Part shown: positions 20,738 to 40,067 of the stretch, piece by piece
How positions within the stretch are numbered: position 1 is the first letter of the stretch
Layout of the letters: every line of letters starts with the position of its first letter
Assembly: GCA_963700635.1 (NCBI GenBank)
Contig: CAVOYH010000003.1
Location: forward strand, 1,216,001 to 1,280,000
Direction: 5' to 3'
From: an uncultured Bacteroidota bacterium
GTDB taxonomy: Bacteria; Bacteroidota; Ignavibacteria; UBA10030; UBA6906
DNA: 64,000 nt
The notes under the pieces: generated by a model
Seen by the model: only the letters and a program-made list of their open reading frames with translations
Databases searched by the model: none
What the model was told of the DNA's origin: nothing
Translations under genes and position numbers: made by a program

Positions 20738-22094
20738 GTCGATCCTGATTGTTGACGACGAAGAGATCATTCGTGAGTCTCTTTCCTTTGTGCTTACCAA
20801 GGAGGGATACCGTGTCGTGGATGCGGCGAACGGCAGGATCGCACTGGACATGATCCGGGAGACCTCGTTTGATCTGGTCATCACCGATCTCGAGATGCCG
20901 GAGATGAAAGGGATCGAGCTTCTGGAACACGTTACGCAGTTAAGCCCGGAGACGTTTGTCGTTATCATCACTGCCTATGGATCCATTGATACAGCGATTG
21001 CCGCCCTGCGTAAGGGTGCCGTGGACTATGTACTCAAACCGGTGGAGTTTGACGAGCTGCTCGTAAAGATCTCCCGGTTGCTGCAGACCCGCCGGATCAG
21101 CCTGGAAAACAAGTTGCTGCGGGGGGAACTCCATCGTCAATACACGTTTGATCAGATCATCGGACAGAGTCCCGCGATGCAGCGCGTGTTCGATACCATC
21201 CGTAAAGTGGCCGTCACCGACGGCACTGTGCTCATCAGCGGGAAAAGCGGGACCGGCAAGGAATTGGTTGCACGCGCAATCCACTTTAACAGCAAGCGAT
21301 CCGCGGGGCCGTTTGTTGCGGTCAACTGCGGTGCCATCGTGGAAAATCTCTTTGAAAGTGAACTCTTCGGCCATAAGCGGGGCGCGTTTACCGGGGCAGC
21401 GATGGACAAGGAGGGATTCTTCAAGGCAGCCGACGGGGGAACGTTGTTCCTGGATGAAATAAGCGAAATCCCCATGCACCTGCAGGTAAAACTCCTGCGC
21501 GCAATCGAACTCAAGGAGGTCACTGCGGTAGGCACCTCCATGCCGGTGCCGATGGATGTTCGGATCATCTCTTCAACGAACAAAAATCTGGCGAAGGAAG
21601 TCGAGGAGGGACGTTACCGGGAAGATCTCTTCTATCGTCTTAATATCGTAGAAATACCTCTCCCCTCGCTGACGGAACGCGTCGATGACATTCCCCTTCT
21701 GGTTCAACATTTTGTCGCCAGATACGCCAAGGAGATGAGCAAGGATGTGCGAGGGGTGGACAATGAAGTGATGAAATGTCTGGTGGGACACTCCTGGAAG
21801 GGGGAAATCCGGGAACTCGAGAACATTATCGAGCGCGCGGTGATTTTTGCCGAAGGGAATATTGTGACCAAAAAGGAATTGCCCGCGTTTTTTGATCAAC
21901 GAACTGATGCGGTGTACTCGTTCGACGCCCGGCGTTCAATGAAGGAGGCGGTGGACGACTTCGAACGGCAGTATATTGCACATGTGCTCCGGACAAACCA
22001 GTTCAACAAGGAAGTCGCCGCAAAAGCCTTGAAGATCAGCCTTTCTTCTCTCTACCGGAAGATCGAGGAGTTAAATATCCCTTCGCAGGGTTAG
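20730..22094 (+). CDS. Sigma54-dependent response regulator (NtrC family)
   Basis: Receiver (IVDDE, TDLEMP, LKP), Walker A GKSGTGKE, intact GAFTGA, LFLDEI, Fis-type HTH. Confidence 0.96.
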   Translation: MAESILIVDDEEIIRESLSFVLTKEGYRVVDAANGRIALDMIRETSFDLVITDLEMPEMKGIELLEHVTQLSPETFVVIITAYGSIDTAIAALRKGAVDYVLKPVEFDELLVKISRLLQTRRISLENKLLRGELHRQYTFDQIIGQSPAMQRVFDTIRKVAVTDGTVLISGKSGTGKELVARAIHFNSKRSAGPFVAVNCGAIVENLFESELFGHKRGAFTGAAMDKEGFFKAADGGTLFLDEISEIPMHLQVKLLRAIELKEVTAVGTSMPVPMDVRIISSTNKNLAKEVEEGRYREDLFYRLNIVEIPLPSLTERVDDIPLLVQHFVARYAKEMSKDVRGVDNEVMKCLVGHSWKGEIRELENIIERAVIFAEGNIVTKKELPAFFDQRTDAVYSFDARRSMKEAVDDFERQYIAHVLRTNQFNKEVAAKALKISLSSLYRKIEELNIPSQG

Positions 22095-22207: not shown

Positions 22208-22222
22208 TGGCACAACTCTTGA
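22208..22222 (+). promoter_or_regulatory. Sigma54 -24/-12 promoter upstream of the USP gene
   Basis: TGGCACA-ACTC-TTGA. Confidence 0.7.
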
Positions 22223-22252: not shown

Positions 22253-22717
22253 ATGATATTTCTCAAGAAGATACTCGTAACAACGGATCTGTCGCCGTTC
22301 TCTCTGGCAGCAATGGAGTACGCGACGTCGTTAGGAACACTCTACTCTTCGAGGATCTATCTCCTTTACGTGCCGGACGGGAAGGAGGGACAAGCACAAC
22401 CGAAGACCGAAGAGGAGGCCGGGAAGGCCCTGGAGGAATTTGTCCGCACGAACGTGTCAAGTGACACGCGGCTTGTCCAGGTAGTGCGAAAGGGTGTCCC
22501 CGTGGAGGAAATCAATCGCTTCTCCCAGGAGGAGGGCATTGACCTCATCATCATAGCATCACACGGACGAACGGGCTTGCGCCACATGGTAATGGGAAGC
22601 GTGGCAGAACGAATCGTCCGGCTTTGCACTGTGCCGGTGTTGACCATTAAACCCCAACCCTTCCGGGAGACGATTCTCCGGAGGGAGGACATCGAAAAGG
22701 AACTGCACCTGCGGTAA
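22253..22717 (+). CDS. Universal stress protein
   Basis: KKILVTTDLS...DLIIIASHGRTG...MGSVAERIVR...VPVL. Confidence 0.93.
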   Translation: MIFLKKILVTTDLSPFSLAAMEYATSLGTLYSSRIYLLYVPDGKEGQAQPKTEEEAGKALEEFVRTNVSSDTRLVQVVRKGVPVEEINRFSQEEGIDLIIIASHGRTGLRHMVMGSVAERIVRLCTVPVLTIKPQPFRETILRREDIEKELHLR

Positions 22718-22744
22718 GCAGGTCATGGATGTAAATACAGAAAC

Positions 22745-23170
22745 ATGCAACAAGACACCAAACATAAAAATACGGAAACCACTTCTGAAGTGGAAGGCGG
22801 AGACGGGAAAAAGACGATACTGCTCTACAGTCCCGACCTGAACTTCTGTTTTAGCCTGTCAATGCTTTTCCAGGATCGTTATAATGTAATCACGACAACA
22901 AATCTTGGTATGCTGGACAAGCTGGTTGCTGACTATTCAGCAGACCTCGTGCTGGTTGATGCAGTTCCTTCCGAGAAACTCATCGAACGGCTGGGAGCAC
23001 TGCGCGGCTTGAACAATGCCCTCCCGATCATCCTCCTCTATGTGTACAATGCCAGGGATGTGGACCTGGATCGTACCATTCGTGAACATGTTGATTCAGT
23101 ATTTTACAAACCGTTAGAGATTCTCTCAATCTCCAAACGTGTTGAAGAACTGCTCTCCCGGACATCTTGA
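22745..23170 (+). CDS. Stand-alone degenerate receiver-domain protein
   Basis: CheY-like pattern (ILLYSPD, DLVLVD, PIILL, YKP) lacking the usual acidic pair. Confidence 0.65.
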   Translation: MQQDTKHKNTETTSEVEGGDGKKTILLYSPDLNFCFSLSMLFQDRYNVITTTNLGMLDKLVADYSADLVLVDAVPSEKLIERLGALRGLNNALPIILLYVYNARDVDLDRTIREHVDSVFYKPLEILSISKRVEELLSRTS

Positions 23171-23301: not shown

Positions 23302-23316
23302 TGGCATGTTGATTGA
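23302..23316 (+). promoter_or_regulatory. Sigma54 -24/-12 promoter of the multiheme cytochrome operon
   Basis: TGGCATG-TTGA-TTGA, 44 nt before the GTG start. Confidence 0.65.
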
Positions 23317-23359: not shown

Positions 23360-25492
23360 GTGAAACGGTTTCTCTTTATACTACTGGGAGTCTGGATATT
23401 TTCTACTCCCCGCCTCGCTGCGCAGTCCGATACGGAATGCCTCAGTTGTCACTCTGATGCATCGATCAGTATGGAACGTAAAGGGGTGACGGTTTCCCTC
23501 GCTGTGGACGGGAAGCAGTTCGCCTCTTCGGCACATGGAAAGCTGGGATGTGTGCAGTGCCATTCCGGATTCCGTCCTTTTGAACTCCCGCACGCGCGGA
23601 AAATCAAGGCGGTCGACTGTTCGCAGTGTCATCAGAGCGACCACCTCAACACCTATGCGCAGAGCGTTCACGGTGGGGCAGCGAAGGAGAAGGGTGCGGC
23701 TGCCTGCGTGGACTGCCATACAACACACGCGATTCGCAAAGTCTCAGACCTGGAGCCCCAGCAGCGGAAAGCGTTTGCGGAACGGATGTGTTCGAAATGC
23801 CATGGGAGCGTAAGTGTACGGTACGTGCAATCGGACCATGGGATCGCACTCGCAAACGGAGTAAAAGGTGCGCCGAGTTGTATTGATTGCCATGGTGAGC
23901 ACGGCGTACAATCCTCGGCAACGACAGAGTCAACCACGCACCGCGCGCATCAGGCGCAGATGTGCGAAAGTTGTCATCTTGACAACCCGGAAGTACGCGC
24001 CCGCGTGGGACCCTCGGCTGGGTTCATCCGCAGCTACGAGCAAAGTGTCCACGGGCAGGCAATCGCACACGGCAATGATGCTGCTGCCACCTGCACCGAT
24101 TGCCACACGAGCCATGATATGCGGAAGGGCTCGAATCCGGGGTCGACGGTGTCCAAGAAGAACATTGCGGCCACGTGCGCAGCCTGTCATGGCGATATCA
24201 AAGAGCAGTATGACGCGAGTATTCATGGCATAGCGCTTTCAAAGGGAATTGGCGCTTCGCCGACCTGCACCGACTGCCATGGCGAACATAACATCCTCTC
24301 GCCCAAAGACGCACGCTCCCCGGTTGCCGCCGGCAACGTCTCCGCACAAGTGTGTTCCCCCTGCCATGAATCCGTCCGACTGACGGAAAAATATGGTCTT
24401 GCCTCCGACCGGTTCCGGAGCTTCGAAGACAGTTTCCATGGTCTTGCCACGAGGGCGGGATCTGTGGAAGTGGCAAATTGCGCCAGCTGTCATGGCGTGC
24501 ACGATATCAAGCCGTCAACGGATTCCACTTCGCGGATTTTTCCCGCAAATCTTATACAGACATGCGGGGATTGCCATCCGGGTGCCAACGAAAATTTTAC
24601 CCGCGGCTCGGTGCACGTGATTGCGACGGAAAGCGGCGAGCAAATCCTGTACTTTGTATCCAACGGGTATCTGGCTCTGATTTTCGTCATCATCGGAGGC
24701 ATGCTCTTTCACAACATCCTGGACTTCCTGAGGAAATCCCGGAAGCAGCTTCAGTATCGCAGGGGTGATCTCCCCCGTAAACATGTTGCGCACCGGCTCT
24801 ACGTACGTATGACGCTGAACGAGCGAATACAACACGGCACACTGGTGGTCAGTTTTATCGCGCTCGTCGTCACCGGGTTTGCGCTCCGGTATCCGGACGC
24901 CTGGTGGGTCGCGCCGTTGCGCAGCCTGAGTCCCTTGATGTTTGAACTGCGCGGTATCCTCCATCGGGTTGCGGCGGTTGTGATGGTGGGGGCGAGTCTG
25001 TACCATGTGTACTATCTGTTCTTCGTGACGCGGGGAAAAGAACTCTTGAAGGATCTTCTCCCGCGCAGGCAGGACATTACCGATGCCGTCGCAGTGTTAC
25101 GCTACAATCTGGGGTTCTCACCGGAGAAACCCAGATTCGGCCGGTTCAGCTACATTGAAAAGAGCGAATACTGGGCGCTGGTATGGGGAACCATCGTCAT
25201 GGGAGTCACGGGAGTGATTCTCTGGTTCGACAACCTCTTTCTTGGCCTGCTGACCAAACTCTGGTGGGATGTTGCACGAACGGTGCATTATTACGAGGCA
25301 TGGCTTGCGACCCTCGCAATTATTGTCTGGCATTTCTATTTTGTTATTTTTAACCCGGATACCTACCCCATCAACCTGGCGTTCTGGAAAGGAACGCTGA
25401 CGGAAGAGGAGATGGAGGAAGAACATCCGTTGGAACTGGAGAAACTACAGGAGCAGCAGCGGCTTCTTCCGGCGGATGCAGAGAGTGTGTAA
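23360..25492 (+). CDS. 13-heme cytochrome c fused to a cytochrome b/b6 membrane domain (CbcL-like)
   Basis: Signal peptide and 13 CXXCH, then TM helices with His residues (IQHG, LHRVAA, VHYYEA, WHFY) and GRFSYIEKSEYWAL. Confidence 0.9.
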   Translation: MKRFLFILLGVWIFSTPRLAAQSDTECLSCHSDASISMERKGVTVSLAVDGKQFASSAHGKLGCVQCHSGFRPFELPHARKIKAVDCSQCHQSDHLNTYAQSVHGGAAKEKGAAACVDCHTTHAIRKVSDLEPQQRKAFAERMCSKCHGSVSVRYVQSDHGIALANGVKGAPSCIDCHGEHGVQSSATTESTTHRAHQAQMCESCHLDNPEVRARVGPSAGFIRSYEQSVHGQAIAHGNDAAATCTDCHTSHDMRKGSNPGSTVSKKNIAATCAACHGDIKEQYDASIHGIALSKGIGASPTCTDCHGEHNILSPKDARSPVAAGNVSAQVCSPCHESVRLTEKYGLASDRFRSFEDSFHGLATRAGSVEVANCASCHGVHDIKPSTDSTSRIFPANLIQTCGDCHPGANENFTRGSVHVIATESGEQILYFVSNGYLALIFVIIGGMLFHNILDFLRKSRKQLQYRRGDLPRKHVAHRLYVRMTLNERIQHGTLVVSFIALVVTGFALRYPDAWWVAPLRSLSPLMFELRGILHRVAAVVMVGASLYHVYYLFFVTRGKELLKDLLPRRQDITDAVAVLRYNLGFSPEKPRFGRFSYIEKSEYWALVWGTIVMGVTGVILWFDNLFLGLLTKLWWDVARTVHYYEAWLATLAIIVWHFYFVIFNPDTYPINLAFWKGTLTEEEMEEEHPLELEKLQEQQRLLPADAESV

Positions 25493-25496
25493 CCTC

Positions 25497-27533
25497 ATGA
25501 AAAGAGAACGGACAGACATGCACCGGGGAGGATGGTTGTGGCGGTGGAGTGTTATGCTCTGTCTGGCGCTTCTCTGCCTTCTCCCCGGCACGGTGCAGGC
25601 ACAGGATGCGGAAGAGTGTCTCCTCTGCCACAGCGATCGGGATCTGCGCGGGACGCGGAAAGGGAGATCGATCAGCGTCTTTGTGGACGAGAAGAAGTTT
25701 GGTTCTTCCGTGCATGGGACCCTCGCGTGTGTTACCTGTCATGCCGATCTTTCGGGGAAAGAAATGCCGCATGCGGACGATGTGGCGCCGGCGGTCTGCG
25801 GTGACTGTCACGACAGGGTGCAAGCTCTCCACACGGGATCTCTTCACGGCAAGGCGGTGAAGAGCGGAGATCCCCTTGCGCCACGCTGTGCGGATTGTCA
25901 TGGGTCACACGGAATTCTTCCTGCAAAGGATCCACGGTCACCTGTTGCCCCGATGAAAATTCCCTTTCTTTGCGGGAAGTGCCACACGGAAGGGGCTCCG
26001 GTTCAACGGCAACGGGTAATCCACGCAGATCATATCGTCGAAAACTACTCTGAAAGTATTCACGGCGAAGGACTTCTCCGCAAAGGGCTTGTCGTCTCGG
26101 CAACGTGTGCCTCCTGCCACACCGCACACGCGATTCTTCCTCACACCGATCCCGCATCATCGATAGCGAGGCGCAATATCGCGGCCACCTGCACGCAATG
26201 TCATGCGGAAATTGAGATGGTGCACCGGAAGGTGATCAAGGGCGAGTTGTGGGAACGGGAAGCCCATGTCCTGCCTGCCTGCGTGGATTGCCACCAGCCA
26301 CACAAGGTGCGCAAGGTGTTTTACGATCAGGGTATGGCCGATAAGGACTGCATGCGCTGTCACGCCAAGCCCGATCTTGTTGCATCCAGAGACCGGCGGT
26401 CAATGTATGTCGCGCAGGATCATCTGGGAAATTCGAAGCACGCACGGACGTCATGCAGCCAGTGCCATACGGGTGTGAATGCAGCCAAGGTGCGGCCGTG
26501 CGAGACCATCACACAGAAAGTTGATTGTGCATCATGCCACGCCGAGGTAGCGCAGCAGTATGCGGGCAGCATTCACGGTAAGCTGGTGGCGCGTCAGGAT
26601 CCCAATGGCCCGACATGCAAAGAATGCCACGGAACACATGCGGTGCTTGGCAAACTCCAGCCCGAGTCGCCCAGCTTTCCCACAAATGTCCCGACACTGT
26701 GTGCCCGCTGTCATCGCGAAGGTGAGAAAGCCGCGGTTCGGTATACAGGGGATCAAACGAACATCGTGGAGCATTACGGCGAAAGTATTCATGGTAGGGG
26801 CCTGACACGAAGCGGGTTGACGGTGACCGCCATGTGCACCAACTGTCACACCGCACACGGCGTGCTCCCGCGGAAAGATCCCCAGTCCAGCATCAACCCG
26901 AAAAATGTCCCTGCAACATGCGGACGGTGTCACCACGGGATCGAAGACCAATTCCGTCACAGTGTGCATGCAAGTATCGACACCACCTCAGGGAAGAAGC
27001 TGCCGGTCTGTGATGATTGCCACAGCGCCCACACGATCCGCCGGGCTGACGAAGAGGGATTCAAGCTCACGATCATGAACCAGTGCGGCAGGTGCCATGA
27101 GGATATCGCCAAAACGTACTTTGATACGTACCATGGGAAGGTGTCACAGCTCGGGTACACCAAAACTGCAAAATGTTACGATTGCCATGGCGCGCATGAT
27201 ATCCTTCCGGTTACGGATACCCGCTCACATCTCAGCAGAGAAAATGTCGTCGCAACATGTCAGAAGTGCCATCCCGGCGCAAACCGGAGGTTCGCGGGAT
27301 ATCTCACCCATGCCACGCACCATGATCCCGACAAGTACCCGTTCCTGTTCTGGACTTTCTGGGGGATGACCGGGTTGTTAGTGGTGACATTTGTCGTCAG
27401 CGGCTTGCACACACTCCTCTGGTTGCCACGGGCGATCCAGATGCGAAGGGCGCGGACACGGCGGGAAAAAGCCGTCGAGGCGAAACCGAAGGCGGATGAA
27501 GTAGAAAAGGACAATGAACCACCAGCACAATAA
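25497..27533 (+). CDS. 19-heme membrane-anchored cytochrome c
   Basis: Signal peptide (VQA/QD), 19 CXXCH and one C-terminal TM helix; paralogous to the c-domain of the upstream gene. Start may be 25518. Confidence 0.9.
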   Translation: MKRERTDMHRGGWLWRWSVMLCLALLCLLPGTVQAQDAEECLLCHSDRDLRGTRKGRSISVFVDEKKFGSSVHGTLACVTCHADLSGKEMPHADDVAPAVCGDCHDRVQALHTGSLHGKAVKSGDPLAPRCADCHGSHGILPAKDPRSPVAPMKIPFLCGKCHTEGAPVQRQRVIHADHIVENYSESIHGEGLLRKGLVVSATCASCHTAHAILPHTDPASSIARRNIAATCTQCHAEIEMVHRKVIKGELWEREAHVLPACVDCHQPHKVRKVFYDQGMADKDCMRCHAKPDLVASRDRRSMYVAQDHLGNSKHARTSCSQCHTGVNAAKVRPCETITQKVDCASCHAEVAQQYAGSIHGKLVARQDPNGPTCKECHGTHAVLGKLQPESPSFPTNVPTLCARCHREGEKAAVRYTGDQTNIVEHYGESIHGRGLTRSGLTVTAMCTNCHTAHGVLPRKDPQSSINPKNVPATCGRCHHGIEDQFRHSVHASIDTTSGKKLPVCDDCHSAHTIRRADEEGFKLTIMNQCGRCHEDIAKTYFDTYHGKVSQLGYTKTAKCYDCHGAHDILPVTDTRSHLSRENVVATCQKCHPGANRRFAGYLTHATHHDPDKYPFLFWTFWGMTGLLVVTFVVSGLHTLLWLPRAIQMRRARTRREKAVEAKPKADEVEKDNEPPAQ

Positions 27534-28365
27534 ACCCGACGAGCGTCAGTACCTGCGGTTCACGCGGCTGAACCGCCTACTCCACGCCACCATGATCGTC
27601 TGCTTCATCAGCCTGGCGTTGACGGGCATGACGCTCAAATTCTCCTATACAGGCTGGGCCGCGTTTCTGTCGAGACTCTTCGGCGGGTACGAAACGGCGG
27701 GCTACGTTCACCGTCTCGCCGCAGTCGTGATGGTAGGAATCTTCATCGTGCATCTTGTGGACCTCGTCCGTCGCAAGCGGCGAGGACATACGAGCTGGAA
27801 AAGTATGCTCACCGGGCCGGACACCATGATGCCCACCAGGCGGGATCTTACCGACGCCCGGGACTCGCTACGGTGGTTCCTGGGCATGGGGCCGCGTCCG
27901 AATTACGGGAGATGGACATACTGGGAGAAATTTGACTATTTTGCAGTGTTCTGGGGGATGGTTGTCATCGGATCCACCGGGTTTACGCTCTGGTTCCCGG
28001 AGTTCTTCACATTGGTGTTTCCGGGTTGGATGATTAATGTGGCGGCAATCATTCACAGTGATGAAGCCCTGCTTGCGACAGGGTTTATCTTCACCGTACA
28101 TTTCTTCAATACCCATCTCCGTCCCGAAAAGTTTCCCATGGATATGGTGATTTTTACCGGACGAATGCCGGTTGAGGAGCTTGCGGAGGATAAGCCGGAG
28201 GAGTATGCAAAACAGGTTGCAGCTGGGACGCTGGAAAACAACCTCGTGGAACCGTATCAGCCTATCGTGATTCGTGCGATCCGGACATTTGCCTGGATAG
28301 CGCTGGGGATCGGATTCAGCATCGTGGTCTGGATCATTTATGCCATGGTATTCTCATATCGGTAA
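27514..28365 (+). CDS. Cytochrome b/b6 membrane subunit, partner of the 19-heme protein
   Basis: LLHAT, VHRLAA, GRWTYWEKFDYFAVFWG, IHSDEA, VHFFN; overlaps the upstream stop. Confidence 0.88.
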   Translation: MNHQHNKPDERQYLRFTRLNRLLHATMIVCFISLALTGMTLKFSYTGWAAFLSRLFGGYETAGYVHRLAAVVMVGIFIVHLVDLVRRKRRGHTSWKSMLTGPDTMMPTRRDLTDARDSLRWFLGMGPRPNYGRWTYWEKFDYFAVFWGMVVIGSTGFTLWFPEFFTLVFPGWMINVAAIIHSDEALLATGFIFTVHFFNTHLRPEKFPMDMVIFTGRMPVEELAEDKPEEYAKQVAAGTLENNLVEPYQPIVIRAIRTFAWIALGIGFSIVVWIIYAMVFSYR

Positions 28366-28476
28366 CCGGATTGTTCTTGAGGGCTTAATGGCCGGCCCTC
28401 AGCCATGGCAAAAAGTGGCAAATTGTTTTTGTTTCCCGTACATTACAGTATCATTACACCTTAGAAGGAGGAGTTT

Positions 28477-29016
28477 ATGAGAATCGCTCTGACGGTCGTC
28501 ACAGTCGTCGTTGCTGTCGTGTTCCTTACCGGCACGGTCGCTGCTGAGAACAAGTTTGTGGGTACGAAGATGTGTGCGATGTGCCATAAGGCAAAGGACA
28601 AAGGCGAGGCCTCTGTCATCTGGCAGAAGAGCACTCACGCAAATGCCTTCAAGACGCTGGAAGGCGAACAGGCAAAGAAGATTGCGAAGGAGAAGGGTTT
28701 GTCGAAACCGCCGGCCGAATCTCCCGAATGCCTCAAATGCCATGTCACCGGTGGTGGAGTTGCAAAAAATGTCGACAAGTCATTCGATATGAAAGAAGGT
28801 GTGACGTGCGAAGCATGCCATGGCGCAGCGTCGGGATACAAGACCCTCCATGCAAAGGCAGAGAACAAGGCGAAGGCAGTCGCGGCAGGCCTTATCACGG
28901 GTGAAGCGTCCGCGAAGTTGTGTGTAACCTGCCACAACGAAGAGAGTCCGACATTCAAGGGATTCAAGTACGACGAGTACTGGTCCAAGATCGAGCACAA
29001 ACTTCCCAAGAAATAG
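28477..29016 (+). CDS. Periplasmic tetraheme cytochrome c554-like protein
   Basis: AAGGAGG SD, signal peptide, FVGxxxCAMCH, WQKSTHANAF, CLKCH, GVTCEACHG, CVTCH. Confidence 0.88.
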   Translation: MRIALTVVTVVVAVVFLTGTVAAENKFVGTKMCAMCHKAKDKGEASVIWQKSTHANAFKTLEGEQAKKIAKEKGLSKPPAESPECLKCHVTGGGVAKNVDKSFDMKEGVTCEACHGAASGYKTLHAKAENKAKAVAAGLITGEASAKLCVTCHNEESPTFKGFKYDEYWSKIEHKLPKK

Positions 29017-29029
29017 GAACATTTGTACG

Positions 29030-29066
29030 ACGGCGGGGGATGAAGGAACTACCTCCGCCGTTTTTT
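29030..29066 (+). terminator. Intrinsic terminator-like hairpin inside the cytochrome cluster
   Basis: ACGGCGGGGG...CCTCCGCCGT followed by a T run. Confidence 0.65.
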
Positions 29067-29088
29067 GTCACTCACTCCGACGTCGTGT

Positions 29089-30588
29089 ATGTCGAACCGA
29101 AAACTTCCTGACATCTTCTACAATCCGCTGAGCATCGGCGGCGCGGCGCTTGCCAGCGTTTCGCTGGTGACGATCGTTTTTCTCATTCTTGTTGAATGGT
29201 TGCAGCACGATTCTCCTCCCTACATCGGCATTATCTCGTACGTGATTCTTCCGCTCCCGCTGGTCATGGGACTCCTGCTGATTCCTGCCGGCGCGTGGCG
29301 CGAACGCTGGCGAATACGCAGAGGTCAGCCGGCCAGCCGGCTTGCATTTTCTGTGGACCTGGCGGTGCCGCGCCAGCAGGCTGCCCTGACGATCTTCAGC
29401 AGTGTATCCGTTATCATACTCCTACTTACGGCGTACGGGAGTTACCGGACGTTTGAATGGACAGAATCTGTGGAGTTCTGCGGTACCATCTGTCATGAAG
29501 CGATGGAACCCGAGCATACGGCCTACCAGCATTCGCCGCATGCACGCGTAAAATGTGTTGACTGTCATGTGGGCTCCGGGGCCGGGTGGTATGTCCGCTC
29601 GAAACTTTCCGGCGCCTATCAGGTGTACGCGGTGATCGCCAATGTATTCCCGAGACCGATTCCTACCCCGATCAAAGACCTCCGTCCGGCACAGGAAACC
29701 TGCGAGCAGTGCCATTGGCCCTCACACTTTTCTGCCGAGAAAAAATACGTCAATACGTACTTCAAGTCCGATGAGGCCAACACACGCTGGACGATTGCGT
29801 TGTTGATGAAGATCGGCGGCGGCAGTGAAGAACGCGGCCCGTCAGGCGGAATCCACTGGCACATGAACATTGACAACGAAGTGACCTATGCGGCGACAGA
29901 TTCTCAACGTCAGGTGATTCCGCTGATCAGCATCAGGAACCGACGTACCGGTGTTGTTTCTGAGTTCATCGCACAGGATGCCATTGATGACATCGAGACA
30001 CTGCGCACCCTCCCCAGGGCCACGATGGATTGTATTGATTGCCACAACAGACCTTCACACATCTACCGGCCCCCTGCCCGTATCATTGACCAAAGTCTTG
30101 CGCATGGCCGGATCAGCTCCGATCTTCCCCGGATACGGGAACAGGCGATGGAGCTGCTGAAGTTTGAGTACACGAGCACCCAGGCGGCCGTCGACAGCAT
30201 TGACATGCTCCTGAAAGAATTTTATGCCAGGGAGTACCCGGCAATCACAGAATCACAACCCGCATTGATTGCCGCCGCAAGCAAGGAGCTTCAGGCTCAA
30301 TTCCGTCTCAACTTCTTCCCGCGCATGAAGGTGCGGTGGAGCGCATATCCCGACAACATCGGACATATGACCGATCTTGGTTGTTTCCGATGCCATGATG
30401 GAAATCACCGCACTGCTGACGGACGTGTACTCTCAAAGGATTGCAACATCTGTCACACAATTTTGTATCAGGGAACGGCACCGAATCCACAGACACTGTC
30501 TGTTGCAGGTCTTCCCTTCGAACATCCCGAAGATATCGGCGACATCTGGAATGATATGAACTGCGTTGAGTGCCACTCCGGTCGGTGA
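29089..30588 (+). CDS. NapC/NirT-family 7-heme inner-membrane cytochrome (ImcH-like)
   Basis: Three N-terminal TM helices, FCGTICHEAM, SPHARVKCVDCH, RPAQETCEQCHWP, GIHWH; 6 CXXCH plus 1 CX3CH. Confidence 0.87.
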   Translation: MSNRKLPDIFYNPLSIGGAALASVSLVTIVFLILVEWLQHDSPPYIGIISYVILPLPLVMGLLLIPAGAWRERWRIRRGQPASRLAFSVDLAVPRQQAALTIFSSVSVIILLLTAYGSYRTFEWTESVEFCGTICHEAMEPEHTAYQHSPHARVKCVDCHVGSGAGWYVRSKLSGAYQVYAVIANVFPRPIPTPIKDLRPAQETCEQCHWPSHFSAEKKYVNTYFKSDEANTRWTIALLMKIGGGSEERGPSGGIHWHMNIDNEVTYAATDSQRQVIPLISIRNRRTGVVSEFIAQDAIDDIETLRTLPRATMDCIDCHNRPSHIYRPPARIIDQSLAHGRISSDLPRIREQAMELLKFEYTSTQAAVDSIDMLLKEFYAREYPAITESQPALIAAASKELQAQFRLNFFPRMKVRWSAYPDNIGHMTDLGCFRCHDGNHRTADGRVLSKDCNICHTILYQGTAPNPQTLSVAGLPFEHPEDIGDIWNDMNCVECHSGR

Positions 30589-30631
30589 GGGAACGCAGAT
30601 CATGTACAGGCGGCAAGGAAAGGAATATGGA

Positions 30632-31939
30632 ATGAACGGATCTCGTCTTCTCCCGCTCGCACTACTTCTGACGTGGAGTGCGGCGGCTCCAGCACAATAT
30701 GTCTCGGGCCGCCTCTCGACGGCATTCTACGCGTGGGAACAATTTGATACGGTTGGCACATCCCAGCAATACCTCCGTGCCTACCAGACGGCGCAGTTAA
30801 GCATCGCCCACGGTGATGTATCACTGACAACATTTCTCCAGGGAACCACAAACCTGGCCGGCACGTTCGGCGCTTCGGGACGCGTTCGCTTCTACAATCT
30901 CTACCTGAGTTGGACGAACATCGGTAAGGTTGTCGACCTTCACCTGGGACGGCAGGGAATCTTTGCCGGGGCGGGGGTAGGCACCATCGACGGACTCTCC
31001 GCAAAAGCGCGGCTGTTTCAGAACAGAGTGACCCTGACCGGATACGGGGGTGCAACGGTTGGTCCTGAGTTTACCGGAGTGCGCGAAAACATCGGGGATA
31101 ACTATTTTTACGGAGGCCAGGTGGTTACTTCCCTCCTTCCGGGTACGCGCATCGGGTTAAGCTACATGAATCGTCACGAAGAGCGGGACCCCTACTGGAC
31201 CCTTCGCGCCCGGGACACCTCGTATGCGCCCGTGCCCTACTATGTGGCCAACGATTCTCCGGCGGAAGAACTCGGGAGCGCAGATGCCCGGTATGAGTAC
31301 GGTGACCGTTTCTCCGTGTACGGGCGTTATGACTATGATTTCCTGAATGAGCGCACGTCACGGGCTCAGGGTGGTGCGCGGGTCCAGGTAACTCCAAAAC
31401 TTTCCGTCAACGCCGATTATATTCACCGGGTGCCCCGTGTGTTCTACAATTCCATATTCTCGGCGTTTGTCACCAATGCCGTCAACGAATTTGAGGGCGG
31501 TCTCGAGTATGGTTTCACGCCGCTGCTTCGGCTGTTCGGACGGATGGCATGGGTTTCGTATACCGACGAAAAAAGTCACCGCTGGACGCTCGGACTGAAC
31601 ACAGGATATGCCACGGTGGTGTATGCGGGGAGCGACGGATATGCCGGCGAGTTGAGTTCGTTCAGTGTGCAGGGATCCTATCCGCTCTTCGGCCGCACGG
31701 TCGTTCCGACAGCAGGAATCTCGTATGCCTCGTACCGGCTCAGCAGGGAAAGTACGCGAGACAATGCCTTGAGTCTCCTGCTGGGCGCGATGGTCCGGCC
31801 CACGTCCACCTTCTCCTGTGACGTTCAGGGGCAATGGTTGACGAACAAGCTGATGCAGCGTGATCTTCGCGTTCAAGTGCGGTTGAGTTACTGGTTTGCG
31901 CAACGGCTCTCATCCAGCAAAGAGGAGGGGACACCATGA
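30632..31939 (+). CDS. Outer-membrane beta-barrel, porin of a porin-cytochrome complex
   Basis: Signal peptide, amphipathic Tyr/Gly-rich strands throughout, VRLSYWF near the C-terminus; coupled to the next cytochrome gene by ATGA. Confidence 0.75.
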   Translation: MNGSRLLPLALLLTWSAAAPAQYVSGRLSTAFYAWEQFDTVGTSQQYLRAYQTAQLSIAHGDVSLTTFLQGTTNLAGTFGASGRVRFYNLYLSWTNIGKVVDLHLGRQGIFAGAGVGTIDGLSAKARLFQNRVTLTGYGGATVGPEFTGVRENIGDNYFYGGQVVTSLLPGTRIGLSYMNRHEERDPYWTLRARDTSYAPVPYYVANDSPAEELGSADARYEYGDRFSVYGRYDYDFLNERTSRAQGGARVQVTPKLSVNADYIHRVPRVFYNSIFSAFVTNAVNEFEGGLEYGFTPLLRLFGRMAWVSYTDEKSHRWTLGLNTGYATVVYAGSDGYAGELSSFSVQGSYPLFGRTVVPTAGISYASYRLSRESTRDNALSLLLGAMVRPTSTFSCDVQGQWLTNKLMQRDLRVQVRLSYWFAQRLSSSKEEGTP

Positions 31940-33141
31940 TCCGCCGCTATTTTTTCTTCCTCGCGGTCGTTGTCGTGGCGTTGTTGACCGCCGTCGCGTA
32001 CCGTCCGATGAGCCAGCAGGGGTGGCCTGAGCTCGACGACAGCAAGCAGCTGAAATTTTCGCATCAGACGCACATACAGGGTGTGGCGATTGAGTGTGTC
32101 TCCTGTCACGGCGCGACCACCAGCAAAAAGGCCTCGGATTCTCTCAGGCCAACACACGATAATTGCACCTCCTGTCATGAAGAACAACTGACGAATGAAT
32201 GCGGGTATTGTCATGTAAATCCAGATGACATTCAGCCCCCGCCTTCCCCCGTCAGAGAAATTGTGTTCTCCCATGCGCAACATGTCACGATGTCCGATGT
32301 GGCGTGCACCACGTGCCACGCCGGCCTGGACGAAACTGACTATGCCAGAGCGAAGCACATGCCTGCCATGGCCACCTGCGCCACCTGTCACAATGAGCGG
32401 AAGGCAACCAACCAGTGTGAAGCATGCCACACCAATGTGACCAATCTGGTGCCTCCCGATCACCTTGCCGCGAATTTTAAGAGCCGTCACCGCGAGTTGA
32501 CCAGGTTGGGCGAGCTGGATGCGTCGTGCTCAACGTGCCATTCGCAGAGTTTCTGCGCGGAATGCCACAGCGCCACAGAAGTGATGCAGTTCGGCAAGGG
32601 AGCAATGATGAGTGACCCGACTCCACGCACATTTCCGGGAGCCACAACCAGGACGTCGACGCTTCAGATGGTGCATGATTTGAACTACCGCTTTATCCAT
32701 GGCATCGACGCAAAAGCAAAAGGGTCGGACTGTTACTCCTGCCATTCCGCACAGGATTTTTGTGCAACGTGTCATGAAACGGGTGACAATATCACCACCA
32801 CCCGTGGTTTCAAACCGGCCTGGCATCTTGGGGCAGGTTTTACAACACTTGGCGTGGGAAGCGGAGGCGGCCGCCACGCGGATCTTGCACGCCGCGATCT
32901 CGAAAGCTGCATTGCATGCCACGACGCGCAGGGCGGTGATCCGACATGTATCACCTGCCATAGTGATCCCGACGGTATTCGCGGCACGGATCCCCGGACC
33001 CACGTGCCGGGCTATATGAAGACAGAGCGGGGTCCGTGGCATGCTCAACCCGGATCAACCTGCTATAACTGTCATACCGACATGAACGCGCGTCCGGACG
33101 GCACAAAGGGGAGAAACTTCTGTGGGTACTGCCATGGCTAA
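31936..33141 (+). CDS. 14-heme periplasmic cytochrome c (c7/c3-like domains)
   Basis: 14 CXXCH, two FSHxxH c7-like triheme units at the N-terminus, N-terminal signal/anchor. Confidence 0.9.
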   Translation: MIRRYFFFLAVVVVALLTAVAYRPMSQQGWPELDDSKQLKFSHQTHIQGVAIECVSCHGATTSKKASDSLRPTHDNCTSCHEEQLTNECGYCHVNPDDIQPPPSPVREIVFSHAQHVTMSDVACTTCHAGLDETDYARAKHMPAMATCATCHNERKATNQCEACHTNVTNLVPPDHLAANFKSRHRELTRLGELDASCSTCHSQSFCAECHSATEVMQFGKGAMMSDPTPRTFPGATTRTSTLQMVHDLNYRFIHGIDAKAKGSDCYSCHSAQDFCATCHETGDNITTTRGFKPAWHLGAGFTTLGVGSGGGRHADLARRDLESCIACHDAQGGDPTCITCHSDPDGIRGTDPRTHVPGYMKTERGPWHAQPGSTCYNCHTDMNARPDGTKGRNFCGYCHG

Positions 33142-33151
33142 GAAGGACGAT

Positions 33152-34549
33152 ATGATGAAGAGACGAACCCTCCTTCACTGTGCTGCACCACTCCTGGTGG
33201 TCGGCGCGGTGCTGTTCCTCGGCGGTTGCGGGGAACTTAAGACTGATCTCCCGGCCCCCGGGCCGCAAAAAGGAGTGCACGATCTGGGTTGGAATGATCC
33301 TGCCTCCTCAGCGTTTCATGGGAACGTGCTGAAACAGACACAGTACAAAGCCGACGCGTGTATCGCGTGCCATGCCCGGGCGTTCACGGGCGGAACCAGC
33401 GGGAAATCCTGTTTCACCTGCCACACATCATACCCGCACAAAACGGGCTGGAGTGACACCGTTTCAACACAATTCCACGGTAGATTTCTCCGACTCGGAA
33501 TGTCTGAACTCGCCGAGTGCGCAAAATGTCACGGTGCCGCATTTGACGGCGGAAGCAGTGGGACATCATGTTATTCGTGCCACGCATCCTACCCCCACAA
33601 AAGCGGGTGGACCGGCGTTCTCCCTGCATCATCACACGGTGGGTACCTGGCGCAGAAAGCCTGGCAACTTGGCGAGTGTACGGGATGCCACGGAGATGAC
33701 TTCAGCGGTGGGACCAGTGGAAAATCCTGCTTCACCTGTCACGCCTCCTATCCTCACACCACGTTTACAACAGCGGGTGGTCACCCAGCCTATCTGGTTG
33801 ACAAGGGATATCCCCTGGAACAGTGCAGGGTTTGCCATGGCGCAACCTATGATGGCGGCACGGTCGTGTCCGTATCCTGCATGTCCGCAGGATGCCATGT
33901 TGATGCAGGTGGACAGAAAAAATCACCGGAAGCCTGCAACACCTGTCACGGCGGATTCCGTGCTCTCGCGTTGAACATACCATCCTGGGCCCCCCCAAAA
34001 GGTGTTCTGGGCGATTCTTCCATAACGTCCCGCTCTGTCGGGGCGCATCAGAAACACCTTGTCTCCGGCGCACTCGGTAAGGATGTAAAATGTGCAGAAT
34101 GTCACACGGTTCCGGTACAAGTGGTGGCTTCGGAGCACTTCGATACGCGACTGCCTGCGGAGGTCATGTTTAATGACACGCTTGCCAGATTGAAGACTGC
34201 AGCCGGAACATTTACTCCTGCGCCATCGTATAGCGCGATCACATTACGCTGCAGCGGCACGTATTGTCACGGCAACTGGAAAGCAAGCAGGGCGACATCA
34301 GCGTTTGCGTTTGCCTACACGGATTCGTTCATGGTGGGTTCGAACTATGCGCCGACATGGACGGGTGGAACAGCTGAAGCTGCGTGTGGGAGCTGTCATG
34401 GGCTGCCTCCCACAGGCCACATGCCGGCCACACTGGCCACGTGTGTGAACTGTCACCAGGGTGTTGTTAATGGGTCCGGCAGCATTATTGACAATTTGAA
34501 GCATATCAACGGGAAGATTAACGCGTTTGCCTCAGAGCGCCCGTTCTGA
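33152..34549 (+). CDS. 13-heme lipoprotein cytochrome c with CxxxxCH/CxxCH domain
   Basis: Lipobox LGGC; 11 CXXCH plus CMSAGCH and CSGTYCH; PTW...CGSCHGLPP. Start may be 33134. Confidence 0.88.
   Translation: MMKRRTLLHCAAPLLVVGAVLFLGGCGELKTDLPAPGPQKGVHDLGWNDPASSAFHGNVLKQTQYKADACIACHARAFTGGTSGKSCFTCHTSYPHKTGWSDTVSTQFHGRFLRLGMSELAECAKCHGAAFDGGSSGTSCYSCHASYPHKSGWTGVLPASSHGGYLAQKAWQLGECTGCHGDDFSGGTSGKSCFTCHASYPHTTFTTAGGHPAYLVDKGYPLEQCRVCHGATYDGGTVVSVSCMSAGCHVDAGGQKKSPEACNTCHGGFRALALNIPSWAPPKGVLGDSSITSRSVGAHQKHLVSGALGKDVKCAECHTVPVQVVASEHFDTRLPAEVMFNDTLARLKTAAGTFTPAPSYSAITLRCSGTYCHGNWKASRATSAFAFAYTDSFMVGSNYAPTWTGGTAEAACGSCHGLPPTGHMPATLATCVNCHQGVVNGSGSIIDNLKHINGKINAFASERPF
33278..33898 (+). repeat. 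Four tandem diheme modules within the lipoprotein
   Basis: First Cys codons at 33359, 33518, 33677 and 33824 (periods 159, 159 and 147 nt). Unit H.GW..HG..L..CxxCHG..F.GG.SG.SCxxCH.SYP; the fourth copy is diverged. Confidence 0.85.
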
Positions 34550-34552
34550 GTG

Positions 34553-34590
34553 AACGGAAAGGGGACGGCAACGTCCCCTTTTCGTTTTTT
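34553..34590 (+). terminator. Intrinsic terminator ending the cytochrome operon
   Basis: GAAAGGGGACG-GCAA-CGTCCCCTTTTC followed by GTTTTTT. Confidence 0.88.
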
Positions 34591-34622
34591 CACTCCTGCA
34601 AACCTATTCTTACAGATTGGAA
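34587..34622. promoter_or_regulatory. Paired candidate enhancer sites upstream of ccmF
   Basis: TTTTCA-N4-TGCAAA (34587) and TTCTTA-N4-TTGGAA (34607). Confidence 0.45.
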
Positions 34623-34702: not shown

Positions 34703-34717
34703 TGGCACGCATGTTGA
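34703..34717 (+). promoter_or_regulatory. Sigma54 -24/-12 promoter upstream of ccmF
   Basis: TGGCACG-CATG-TTGA. Confidence 0.72.
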
Positions 34718-34752: not shown

Positions 34753-36978
34753 ATGACTGTTCTTGGACAATGGGTACTCGTACTCGCTGGCGCGCTGTCC
34801 CTCTTTTCTGCCGTGAGTTATCTTCGTGCTGCCGCTCATGGCAAACGTCCGCTGGAGACACCCCGCATGCTTATGGTCATCAGCACTGCACTGGTGGTGA
34901 TTGCCTCGGCACTGCTTTATGCACTTCTCCTCTCACATGATTTTTCAAACGGGTATGTTTTTGGCTACAGCGATCGGGCGCTGCCGCTGCACTACCTTCT
35001 GTCCACGTTTTACGCCGGACAGGAGGGGAGCTTTCTGTTCTGGGTGCTCTGCTCTTCTCTGGTGGCAGTAGGCCTTTCCGGATACTCGCGAAAGCGCGAT
35101 GCAGAGGCAGAGGTTATGGCCGTGTTCCTTTTTGTGCAGACGGTCCTGATTGCCCTCACCCTTGCCAAGTCGCCGTTCCGCCTTGTGTGGGATATGTACC
35201 CGGGGATCCCCCTGGGTCAACTTCCGCCCGATGGACGCGGCCTTAATCCACTCCTGCAAAACTTCTGGATGGTTATTCATCCGCCGGTGTTGTTTGTCGG
35301 CTTTGCCCTCATGGCCGTGCCGTTCAGCCAGGCGATCGCCTCGCTGTGGAAAAAGAAATTTAACCTGCTCGCGGAGCAGGCAATCGGCTGGACTCTTTTC
35401 GCGGTGTGTGTGCTTGGTCTCGGCATCATGCTGGGTGCCTACTGGGCATATGGTGTCCTGGGGTGGGGTGGATACTGGGGATGGGATCCTGTGGAAAATT
35501 CCTCGCTGGTCCCGTGGCTGACAGGCATTGCCATGGTACACACCCTGATTGCCCAGCGAAGGACGGGGAAATATATCCGGACGAACTTCGTGTTGGCTGT
35601 TGTCTCGTTCTTTCTCGTCATCTACAGCACATTTCTTACGCGCAGTGGTATCCTCGGTGATGCATCCGTTCATGCGTTCACAGATTCAGGCGCCGAAGTA
35701 TACTGGCTCCTGGTCGGTCTTATGAGTGCCATTCTGATCTCCGGCGGTGCACTCCTTGTGAACCGGCGGAGTTATCTCAAACCGGCGGTCGGAACGGGCG
35801 GTTGGCTTACCCGAGAAACCATGCTGGCCGGCGGGGCGATTGCGCTTCTGATGAGTGCTGCCGTTGTGCTCTTTGGAACAAGTCTTCCGATCTTTTCCAC
35901 AATCCGGGTCGAACCATCGTTTTACGATACCACCAATCTCCCCCTTGCGGTCCTGATGGCGATGCTCATCGGCGTGAGTCTGTATACGCAATGGGAGGAC
36001 CATGACTTCCGCTTCACCGCACAACGGTCATGGAAGATGCTCCTCGCAGCGATCCTTGTTACGGCAGTCTTTTTTATAGCCGGCATGAACGATATATCGA
36101 CGGTTGCGCTCGTCTTTACCGCGTTCTTTGCACTGTTCGTGAATGTGGATATCGGCATCCGCATTGCGAGGGGCGATCCGTGGTTTCTCGGCGGCAAGAT
36201 TGCCCATATCGGCCTGGCCGTGTTTTTTCTCGGTGTGGTTGCCACCGGCAAATACAGCACCAAAGAGCACGTCTCATTACCAAGGGGTACCCCGGTTCAG
36301 GCCCTGAACCATACGCTGACCTATGAGGGGTTTACCGTTACGGAGGATCAGAAGTATGTCTTTAGCGTCCGCGCTCAAAAAGGCGCCGAGTCGTTTGTCC
36401 TTTCGCCGGTGATGTTCGAAGCGGGGGAACAGGGTATCATGCGCAATCCTGATATCGTGGAGGCCATCACGAGTGACTTCTACATGGCTCCCCAGTCTCT
36501 GGAGCCCCCGCAGGACGGCAGCCCTCTTGAGCAGGCCTCACTGGAGAAGGGGAAGTCAGCGGTCATCGACGGCGTGACTGTCACGTTTGTGGATTTCGCC
36601 TCGGGTGATCACGGGGATTCGAAAATGATGGGAGGGGAGGGAACGGTGAGCGTTGCGGCGGTTCTTGAGCTCCAGAAGGGGCCCGAGCGTGAAACGCTGA
36701 AGCCGACCCTGTCGTTTTCGGAGCAAGGGCCGGTCCATCCCGAAGTTGTTTCAAAGCTGCTGGCCGGTGGGGTCCAGCTGCTCACCATGAATGTCAGCAT
36801 GGGCGGCGCCCCGTCCGTCATACAGATCGGCCTGCAGCACAGTGGCGGAGAGAGTTCCCGGCCTGATGTCCTGGTCGTTGAGGCAAGTGTAAAACCCTTT
36901 GTAAGCCTTCTCTGGGCAGGTACCGTGTTAATGATGATTGGCTTCGGATTGGCCATAGTGAAACGTTGGAAGGAATAA
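34753..36978 (+). CDS. ccmF: Cytochrome c heme lyase, CcmF/NrfE family
   Basis: GQEGS, GLNPLLQ, IHPP, WAYGVLGWGGYWGWDPVENSS, RSG...SVHAF. Confidence 0.93.
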   Translation: MTVLGQWVLVLAGALSLFSAVSYLRAAAHGKRPLETPRMLMVISTALVVIASALLYALLLSHDFSNGYVFGYSDRALPLHYLLSTFYAGQEGSFLFWVLCSSLVAVGLSGYSRKRDAEAEVMAVFLFVQTVLIALTLAKSPFRLVWDMYPGIPLGQLPPDGRGLNPLLQNFWMVIHPPVLFVGFALMAVPFSQAIASLWKKKFNLLAEQAIGWTLFAVCVLGLGIMLGAYWAYGVLGWGGYWGWDPVENSSLVPWLTGIAMVHTLIAQRRTGKYIRTNFVLAVVSFFLVIYSTFLTRSGILGDASVHAFTDSGAEVYWLLVGLMSAILISGGALLVNRRSYLKPAVGTGGWLTRETMLAGGAIALLMSAAVVLFGTSLPIFSTIRVEPSFYDTTNLPLAVLMAMLIGVSLYTQWEDHDFRFTAQRSWKMLLAAILVTAVFFIAGMNDISTVALVFTAFFALFVNVDIGIRIARGDPWFLGGKIAHIGLAVFFLGVVATGKYSTKEHVSLPRGTPVQALNHTLTYEGFTVTEDQKYVFSVRAQKGAESFVLSPVMFEAGEQGIMRNPDIVEAITSDFYMAPQSLEPPQDGSPLEQASLEKGKSAVIDGVTVTFVDFASGDHGDSKMMGGEGTVSVAAVLELQKGPERETLKPTLSFSEQGPVHPEVVSKLLAGGVQLLTMNVSMGGAPSVIQIGLQHSGGESSRPDVLVVEASVKPFVSLLWAGTVLMMIGFGLAIVKRWKE

Positions 36979-36980
36979 CA

Positions 36981-37235
36981 ATGCAAACGCAAATAACACA
37001 ACGCCTGCCAAACAATGTCGCGGGTAGATATTTCACCACCGAAGAGTGTGATGGATGCGCCTACTGTGCCTCTATCGCGCCGGAAAACTTTGATTTTGAA
37101 AAGGCCAGCAACACATACTTTGTCAGCTGCCAGCCGCGGAACGCGGAAGAAGAAGAGTATATGCAGGAGGCGGCGGATGACTGTCCGGTGGATGCTATTC
37201 GTATAGAAGAAACCGTTGCCGTGAAGTTTGATTGA
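36981..37235 (+). CDS. Monocluster ferredoxin
   Basis: CDGCAYC...AP.NF...CPVDAI; acidic 84-aa protein. Confidence 0.88.
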   Translation: MQTQITQRLPNNVAGRYFTTEECDGCAYCASIAPENFDFEKASNTYFVSCQPRNAEEEEYMQEAADDCPVDAIRIEETVAVKFD

Positions 37236-37293
37236 TCAGCGGTCCCGACATCCTTCACGGTCTAGCCACGCCACAGAGTGCACAAACGATAGG

Positions 37294-38631: not shown

Positions 38632-38684
38632 TTGCTCGCATGGCGCGCAGCACTACTGAATAACGAACGCGAGGAGCAGAGCCG

Positions 38685-38975: not shown

Positions 38976-38977
38976 TC

Positions 38978-40066: not shown

Positions 40067-40067
40067 C

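Follow-up and report, generated by a model that had tools for sequence, protein, structure and literature searches.

In porin–cytochrome (Pcc) conduits, a porin of 18–22 strands is encoded alongside a periplasmic cytochrome of 5–14 hemes and an outer-membrane cytochrome (PMC4245776). Here we describe a locus of this type, located at positions 23360–34549 of a 64,000-nucleotide stretch of DNA (the window) on contig C3 of an uncultured Ignavibacteria genome (4.2 Mb, 97% complete, 6.7% contamination). In its eight genes the conduit is joined by ImcH- and CbcL-type modules, and the operon probably serves anaerobic respiration by encoding an outward chain of extracellular electron transfer. Positions are those of the window; elsewhere in the host genome (G000) contig coordinates (C1, C3, C4, C6) are used.

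As the preliminary description of the window had stated, triads of this kind were reported earlier from the Ignavibacteria, and the gene cluster type is already known. In Ignavibacterium album JCM 16511, IALB_1837-1840 encode a porin, a 400-aa periplasmic cytochrome with 14 hemes (401 aa and 14 hemes in the window), an outer-membrane cytochrome whose motifs are atypical, and a neighbouring periplasmic cytochrome; no inner-membrane gene is reported there (PMC4245776). The proposed orthology to this 2014 triad is based on shared features and on porin relatives named as Ignavibacteriaceae, rather than on the type-strain sequences. Berger et al. 2021 described a seven-gene cluster (JNFKJAOJ_00295-00301), with its genes termed hypothetical, in the metagenome-assembled genome (MAG) 'Bacteroidetes_1', which rose from 0.08% to 3.1% (39-fold) on an anode at +400 mV (PMC8258643). 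At their visible N-termini, the proteins of this cluster match the open reading frames (ORFs) of one related locus, L072 (PMC8258643). L072 is orthologous to the window locus and nearly the same in gene order, with identities of 55% for the 13-heme CbcL, 48% for ImcH, 48% for the c554-like protein, 40% for the porin, 50% for the 14-heme cytochrome and 32% for the lipoprotein. Unlike the window, the Berger cluster lacks the split 19-heme CbcL module and encodes a c554-like protein with 3 CXXCH; its lipoprotein is shorter, with 7 hemes, and is accompanied by a second one with 5 CXXCH.

OmbB-like clusters have also been reported from Ignavibacteria MAGs by Fortney 2018 (PMC6137239) and Arbour 2020 (PMC7399161), and Zhong and Shi 2018 listed ImcH and CbcL homologues for Ignavibacteria (PMC6295460). 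The main text of Berger et al. 2021 (PMC8258643) does not mention ImcH, CbcL or NapC, and that of Arbour 2020 (PMC7399161) does not mention ImcH or CbcL; the passages found in Melioribacter papers do not describe the locus. In a literature search of titles, abstract openings and passages, with subscription journals, figures and bioRxiv supplements outside its scope, we found no paper naming ImcH and CbcL in an Ignavibacteria conduit operon. A 2024 study, in which Ignavibacteriaceae cytochromes were upregulated on electrodes, reported that Ignavibacteriaceae are electrode-active by an extracellular electron transfer mechanism that was not known (PMC10874420), and for electron transfer of this type the locus offers a named, ordered candidate pathway and marker genes.

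The ImcH (GSU3259) and CbcL (GSU0274) of Geobacter sulfurreducens belong to the same quinol oxidase families as those of the window operon, and the OmbB-OmaB-OmcB and ExtABCD conduits of Geobacter share its porin/periplasmic/outer cytochrome architecture. In Geobacter these parts lie in separate loci, with imcH and cbcL being constitutive (bioRxiv 2021.04.15.440034), whereas in the window they stand with the conduit in one sigma-54-type operon. Several quinol oxidases clustered with a conduit are also found in the mtr cluster of Rhodoferax ferrireducens (two cymA, mtrH, mtrABC) and in MtoABC (PMC6295460), which in contrast to the window rely on MtrB (28 predicted strands), decaheme MtrA and CymA. 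The 11-kb locus is a compact arrangement of already known parts, common to many uncultured relatives and partly described earlier. As neither its parts nor its general layout is new, it refines current models and does not overturn them.

Heme content and inner-membrane modules

The locus consists of the following eight co-oriented genes:

23360..25492, + strand: fused CbcL-family quinol:cytochrome c oxidoreductase with 13 c-hemes and an FdnI-type cytochrome b, as read from PF01292, motifs and His pattern
25518..27533, + strand: 19-heme cytochrome c with a C-terminal membrane anchor, putative first half of a split CbcL-family protein by heme spacing
27514..28365, + strand: cytochrome b, putative second half of the split CbcL-family protein by homology to the 23360 b domain
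28477..29016, + strand: soluble periplasmic tetraheme cytochrome, c554-like (PF13435), candidate shuttle
29089..30588, + strand: ImcH-family 7-heme inner-membrane quinol oxidase, assigned from helices, motifs, heme spacing and in-register residues
30632..31939, + strand: outer-membrane porin, predicted 22-strand plugless barrel (Pcc-type), from an AlphaFold2 (AF2) model, with a signal peptide read from the sequence
31936..33141, + strand: periplasmic cytochrome with 14 hemes and c7-type domains at the N-terminus, proposed to enter the barrel (motifs, profile match to 3ov0_A)
33152..34549, + strand: 13-heme lipoprotein cytochrome, proposed surface terminal (lipobox; TIGR01904 above cut-off; PF09698)

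Counting motifs in the ORFs gave, in gene order, 13, 19, 0, 4, 6 (plus one CX3CH), 0, 14 and 11 (plus two CX4CH) CXXCH motifs. The total of 67 CXXCH, one CX3CH and two CX4CH agrees with the earlier count for eight co-oriented genes. In all six frames, the locus contains 68 CXXCH compared to a mean of 0.66 and a maximum of 4 in 200 base shuffles, and the remaining 53 kb of the window contain 5. The operon holds 67 of the 188 CXXCH of the genome when ORFs with at least two motifs are counted. Distances between the genes range from −20 to 111 bp for the chosen start codons.

Two cytochrome b domains had been claimed in the preliminary description, and both the 23360 and the 27514 products match the b561-type domain PF01292, with TIGR01583 remaining below its cut-off. 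The inner-membrane c/b modules thus stand as such, and both can be refined to the CbcL family. Members of the CbcL/MtrH/MtoC family carry 3–23 hemes, usually have six helices, or five or four in a few members, and have His in helices 1–3 and two His in helix 5 (PMC6295460). The 23360 product has 13 N-terminal CXXCH followed by PF01292 at residues 519–700 of a 745-aa frame, and five predicted helices with H451 (after helix 1), H492 and H535 (helices 2 and 3) and H643/H658 (helix 5). It therefore shows the multiheme c domain fused to a HydC/FdnI-type b domain and the helix and His pattern of the family, and because of its five helices it represents a minority form of the kind accepted in PMC6295460. 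Its 13-heme domain gave a weak match to 28pb_A (E 2e-6), which is not diagnostic; a CbcA structure that appears in a review under '2BPB' may be this entry. Geobacter CbcL differs in having 9 hemes, compared to 13 and 19 in the window, and a sixth helix that the 13-heme form lacks; its redox-potential gating residues are V205 and F525 (bioRxiv 2022.08.31.506072).

The next two genes, 25518 and 27514, resemble in layout the Geobacter CbcBA pair (GSU0593-0594), in which a separate anchored multiheme c subunit and a cytochrome b gene form a sigma-54-dependent operon (bioRxiv 2021.04.15.440034). However, over 208 aa the 27514 product shares 37% identity with the b domain of 23360 (E 3e-34), and it has the paired His of the CbcL family, whereas CbcB, with its three His and four helices, is not homologous to CbcL (bioRxiv 2021.04.15.440034), which argues against CbcBA. 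The heme spacing of the 25518 product is nearly identical to that of OGU58019.1, a fused 19-heme Ignavibacteria entry of the CbcL family (Table S2, PMC6295460), and relatives carry fused forms of 927–967 aa that match the split pair. In a quick tree of 92 b domains, the 27514 product fell in a clade of 35 rows together with the fused 19-heme forms (Shimodaira–Hasegawa-like approximate likelihood ratio test 100), with the 13- and 16-heme forms standing apart. The pair has one anchor helix and a b subunit with H24, H66 and H181/H196. By homology to the fused family, heme spacing and helix and His pattern, 25518 and 27514 read as a split CbcL-family protein despite their CbcBA-like layout. The full Geobacter trio of ImcH, CbcL and CbcBA was accordingly rejected for this locus.

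The gene at 29089 had been called NapC-like. It does encode an inner-membrane multiheme protein, but the name ImcH fits it better, as all described features of that family are found when it is compared by published positions. The 499-aa product has three N-terminal helices, as ImcH proteins of 495–519 aa have, with hydropathy peaks at 16–34, 46–64 and 98–116 compared to 13–35, 45–67 and 100–122 in GSU3259. A CX3CH adjoins helix 3 and is followed by six CXXCH, and the His-to-His spacing (24, 49, 110, 117, 20, 40) resembles that of GSU3259 (24, 49, 106, 117, 20, 38) and M. roseus (24, 49, 110, 117, 20, 42). By residue number, without alignment to the Geobacter sequence, E126/H136/K172/Q178 correspond to the published E127/H137/K173/Q179 with an offset of one residue; the published His and Gln ligate heme 1, while E127 and K173 belong, like Y188, to the quinol site. 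In 56 of 56 aligned ImcH orthologues H136, K172 and Q178 are unchanged, and position 126 is E or D throughout. Position 187 (published Y188) is F in the window, Y in 42 of the 56 rows and F in 14. In Geobacter, ImcH is a menaquinol oxidase required for high-potential extracellular acceptors (PMC6295460; bioRxiv 2023.05.03.539133), being needed above about −0.1 V. No mtrAB/mtoAB was found adjoining imcH in the survey by Zhong and Shi 2018 (PMC6295460).

Outer-membrane triad and its distribution in relatives

For the 435-aa product of 30632, which had been described as a beta-barrel, the AF2 model (predicted local distance difference test, pLDDT, 88; predicted template modelling score, pTM, 0.77) is a wide barrel, with 22 barrel strands and one loop hairpin by our count. 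The model is closest to the 22-strand barrels of TonB receptors, aligned minus the plug (Z 19.5), and reaches Z 16.5 with the MtrB chain 6r2q_B; the Foldseek matches listed are solely outer-membrane barrels. The product has no Pfam or NCBIfam match, and its profile found no match by sequence among solved structures. The profile reaches 715 cluster representatives, of which the named members (20 of 150 looked up) belong to Ignavibacteriaceae, KSB1 and Calditrichia, and in a protein atlas only 'hypothetical protein' clusters from Bacteroidota/Ignavibacteriota were found. The porin stop codon overlaps the start of the 14-heme gene (ATGA).

The 31936 product (401 aa) has 14 heme motifs and exactly 14 spare His, and its profile matches 3ov0_A (E 3e-25). 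The lipoprotein contains three 53-residue diheme repeats and a CxxxxCH/CXXCH domain. Its 13 spare His match 13 hemes, suggesting that the two CX4CH motifs are real heme sites. In both cytochromes the number of spare His equals the number of hemes, as bis-His wires would show. The lipobox Cys is nearly invariant among orthologues, and the heme motifs range from 6 to 29, with the longer homologues holding more copies of the diheme repeat; at L105 (G190:C32:70500-90499) the orthologue has 874 aa and 28 CXXCH. An acidic N-terminus (at least two D/E in +2..+7) was found in 60 of 82 orthologues, which are related and not independent, compared to 10 of 44 predicted lipoproteins in a crude control from the same genome. 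The AlphaFold model of the lipoprotein is poor (pLDDT 42, pTM 0.22, 16 sequences), and a sequence search of solved structures gave no match. A type IX secretion (T9SS) tail label on one homologue, P0187, was set aside, as it came from a single short contig and was lost on rescanning.

The 22-strand porin beside genes for a 14-heme periplasmic and an outer-membrane cytochrome is the arrangement of the Pcc systems. MtrCAB/MtoAB membership was rejected, given the 22 strands of the model versus 28 predicted for MtrB (PMC4245776). The 14-heme partner was likewise rejected as MtrA/DmsE, scoring 16 bits against the cut-off of 192 for TIGR03508. Many relatives, among them L012-L014, L016, L018 and L072, encode a second lipoprotein, in which the lipid Cys is followed by a Gly-X-Y-rich linker and which has 5 CXXCH. 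Their set of porin, 12/14-heme cytochrome and two lipoproteins is reminiscent of Geobacter ExtABCD. In the host genome, G000:C4:220916-226120 has genes with 20 and 13 CXXCH followed by one for a 539-aa secreted protein, and may encode another porin–cytochrome conduit.

We searched for the porin in related genomes. Of 61 relatives sampled within the order, 50 have it, as do 125 of 201 genomes sampled from the class; ImcH is encoded by 96 of these 201. When the two tables were compared by hand, 92 of these 96 ImcH-bearing genomes also had the porin. In the phylum it was found in 51 of 301 sampled genomes, one of them outside the class. In total, 372 stretches in the species collection encode a porin relative. 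We examined 120 loci, minus 12 duplicates and one with the porin under the score threshold; they are biased to close kin and not independent. Wherever at least 2.8 kb of downstream sequence was available (88 of 88 loci), the 14/12-heme gene and the lipoprotein gene were both present beside the porin, so that the triad does co-occur in other genomes. Together with the wide barrel, this supports the envelope-spanning, quinone-to-surface reading of the preliminary description.

Among the 78 loci with at least 9 kb upstream, 74 have the tetraheme gene and 63 hold an inner-membrane module: CbcL-type in 55 (two copies in 29), ImcH in 50 and both in 46, with Rieske/cytochrome b modules in 38 and NrfD modules in 14. 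The exact eight-gene order was found again in 7 loci. On one contig and within 15 kb of the porin, imcH was found in 19 of 22 genomes of this order compared to 3 of 70 elsewhere in the class, as read by hand from two tables in which fragmented assemblies may hide some cases. The gathering of imcH into the conduit locus is therefore mainly a trait of this order.

The order may, as a tentative reading, have gathered Geobacter-like potential-tuned entry points and the conduit in one operon. By analogy with Geobacter (bioRxiv 2021.04.15.440034; 2022.08.31.506072), ImcH would then serve high potentials and the two CbcL paralogues two lower windows, Rieske/cytochrome b and NrfD modules would be exchanged, and the length of the surface cytochrome would be set by the number of diheme repeats. 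If true, this Ignavibacteria order, abundant but uncultured, would represent a major group of extracellular respirers with redox-adaptive metabolism that has been overlooked, and its 11-kb operon would be a self-contained cassette for electron export that is portable. With ImcH, two CbcL and the conduit under one promoter, potential-window switching outside Geobacter becomes directly testable in a heterologous host, as does the sufficiency of one operon for wiring a cell.

Two loci deserve separate mention. In the host genome, a Rieske/cytochrome b/multiheme module sits away from the conduit (G000:C3:1099676-1102023, − strand), unlike in many relatives; its cytochrome b is in three pieces and its cytochrome is cut to 6 motifs, and it is a pseudogene or an assembly error. 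The sole phylum genome outside the class with the porin carries it at L119 (G272:C40:11500-30481), a locus of 65% GC with tetraheme, porin, 12-heme, lipoprotein, split 19-heme pair and CbcL genes; transfer or mis-binning is possible.

Direction of electron flow and alternative functions

In the proposed chain, menaquinol would be oxidised at the inner membrane by ImcH and the two CbcL-family c/b proteins; futalosine-pathway menaquinone genes are present in the host genome. Having run along the 7-, 13- and 19-heme arms of these proteins, electrons would reach the 14-heme cytochrome, with the tetraheme protein probably acting as shuttle. The 14-heme cytochrome would sit in the 22-strand porin and pass them to the 13-heme lipoprotein at the surface, which would deliver them to an insoluble or bulky acceptor such as Fe/Mn oxides, humic quinones, conductive particles or a partner cell. 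The operon would be switched on from a sigma-54 promoter, probably under the adjacent PAS kinase/NtrC pair, and the neighbouring CcmF would attach the hemes. Judged from its genes, such a system would work like the Geobacter Pcc pathway with ImcH and CbcL, and would differ by being packed into one sigma-54-type operon. The preliminary description had left the direction of flow undecided. As the NapC-like gene reads as ImcH and the c/b modules as CbcL-family proteins, the balance now tilts outward.

Several observations weigh against this outward chain. Despite its matching triad, I. album did not grow with Fe(III) or Mn(IV) oxides (PMC4245776); Fe(II) oxidisers, too, have CbcL-family proteins, and the family shows no direction-specific feature (PMC6295460); and the anode enrichment of the Berger MAG is correlative and comes from a mixed community. 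As more class genomes have the porin than have ImcH, the conduit can exist without ImcH. In 15 of the 78 long-flank loci, no inner-membrane module lies nearby. Finally, the lipoprotein does not carry C-X-K-(D/E)2, the signal that is optimal for export in Bacteroidetes (PMC5080379), and K-(D/E)2 occurs in +2..+8 in only 15 of 82 orthologues.

Inward or two-way flow, with electrons from Fe(II), reduced humics, sulfide minerals or a partner cell reaching menaquinone via CbcL/MtoC-type modules for nitrate or oxygen respiration, appears unlikely to us. CbcL/MtrH/MtoC homologues do lie beside mtoAB in Fe(II) oxidisers (PMC6295460). Moreover, judged by sequence and gene order and not by family models, the host genome appears to have a nitrate reductase, a nitrite reductase and two alternative complex III clusters, and the Rieske/cytochrome b module added in 38 related loci includes an 11-heme cytochrome. 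However, ImcH has been reported solely from Fe(III) reducers (PMC6295460; bioRxiv 2023.05.03.539133), the sole ecological observation is enrichment on an electron-accepting anode (PMC8258643), and RuBisCO was not found in the 97% complete genome, where other carbon-fixation routes were not searched. The triad itself argues against a periplasmic store or hub, in which about 70 hemes per set would feed reductases of soluble acceptors, with the lipoprotein facing inward and the barrel non-conductive: the porin gene, which encodes a plugless barrel, shows translational coupling with the 14-heme gene and was never parted from it in 88 loci, and the lipoprotein N-terminus is acidic in most orthologues. 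We regard this store as improbable, even though the missing canonical export signal, the failure of I. album to use metal oxides (PMC4245776) and the length of the periplasmic arms (13 and 19 hemes versus 9 in Geobacter CbcL) would fit it.

Slightly less probable still is an outward conduit that leads to an extracellular enzyme or to some narrow non-metal acceptor (sulfur species, selenium/arsenic oxyanions, organic N/S-oxides) rather than minerals or electrodes. Shi et al. proposed non-metal substrates for the pcc clusters of non-reducers such as I. album (PMC4245776), and the host genome encodes further secreted multiheme proteins. Yet the operon contains no catalytic subunit gene, nor did we recognise one in the related loci, for which the screen covered only the genes of this locus and a few modules. 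In addition, every heme of the lipoprotein has a spare His, so that no obvious open catalytic heme remains.

Likely promoters, candidate regulators and neighbouring genes

On both sides of the operon we found the following features:

19301..22094, + strand: histidine kinase with PAS domain and NtrC-type (sigma-54) response regulator, candidate operon activator (Pfam PAS/HisKA/HATPase and Response_reg/Sigma54_activat/HTH_8)
22208..22222, + strand: sigma-54 −24/−12-like site before usp (positional conservation)
22253..23170, + strand: universal stress protein gene (PF00582) and small receiver-like gene (weak OmpR-family match far below cut-off)
23302..23316, + strand: sigma-54 −24/−12-like site TGGCA-N6-TTGA, likely promoter of the eight genes (positional conservation)
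34557..34590, + strand: hairpin then T run, likely intrinsic terminator (−23.5 kcal/mol for 34555-34595)
34703..34717, + strand: sigma-54 −24/−12-like site before ccmF (positional conservation)
34753..36978, + strand: CcmF/NrfE-family heme lyase (PF01578, PF16327)

The elements starting at 22208, 23302 and 34703 read TGGCA-N6-TTG(A/C), which we take to be the sigma-54 −24/−12 pattern with A often in place of the usual C. In related loci, the element was found upstream of usp in 11 of 11 cases, of the first cytochrome gene in 18 of 32 and of ccmF in 32 of 40, compared to 11 of 80 for the porin, 4 of 74 for the tetraheme gene and 0 of 56 for imcH. The host genome encodes rpoN. Genome-wide, the pattern occurred 55 times versus 18–32 times in three shuffles; this excess is modest, and the case for sigma-54 thus rests on positional conservation. 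Scans for sigma-70 promoters (16 vs 8.5 +/- 3.3) and terminators (10 vs 13.8 +/- 3.9) were uninformative, and the terminator pattern scan did not list the hairpin at 34557-34590. With conserved sites before the first gene, none before imcH and a strong hairpin with a T run at the end, the eight genes probably form a single transcript. No sequencing run was listed for 23360-33140, a result that has no bearing on expression. The kinase/regulator pair, which is retained upstream in many close relatives, probably drives the operon promoter.

The same element also lies upstream of other genes of the host genome, for example at C1:217607, C3:1696129, C6:122544 and C3:234052; the genes behind these sites read, by names given from sequence, as dnaK, two small heat-shock proteins and a FliL-like protein. 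The −12 box in G000 is often TTGA instead of TTGC, suggesting a lineage-specific promoter consensus.

The ccmF gene is the second copy in the genome, its paralogue on contig C4 being 44% identical, and the neighbouring CcmF is likely dedicated to maturing the operon cytochromes. On its 3′ side (36966-41443), we found genes for a small ferredoxin, a Cys/Met pyridoxal phosphate (PLP) enzyme and a 2-oxoacid:ferredoxin oxidoreductase set; in close relatives, too, conserved ferredoxin and PLP enzyme genes follow ccmF. Further downstream (47703-49109) lies a gene named HemN-like from its sequence, 56% identical to one adjoining the conduit locus in L012, which would be consistent with a high anaerobic heme demand. 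Elsewhere in the host genome, G000:C3:1707695-1709902 and C6:111161-113353 encode similar secreted proteins with 8 CXXCH in near-duplicate neighbourhoods on different contigs, a duplication that the 6.7% contamination may explain.

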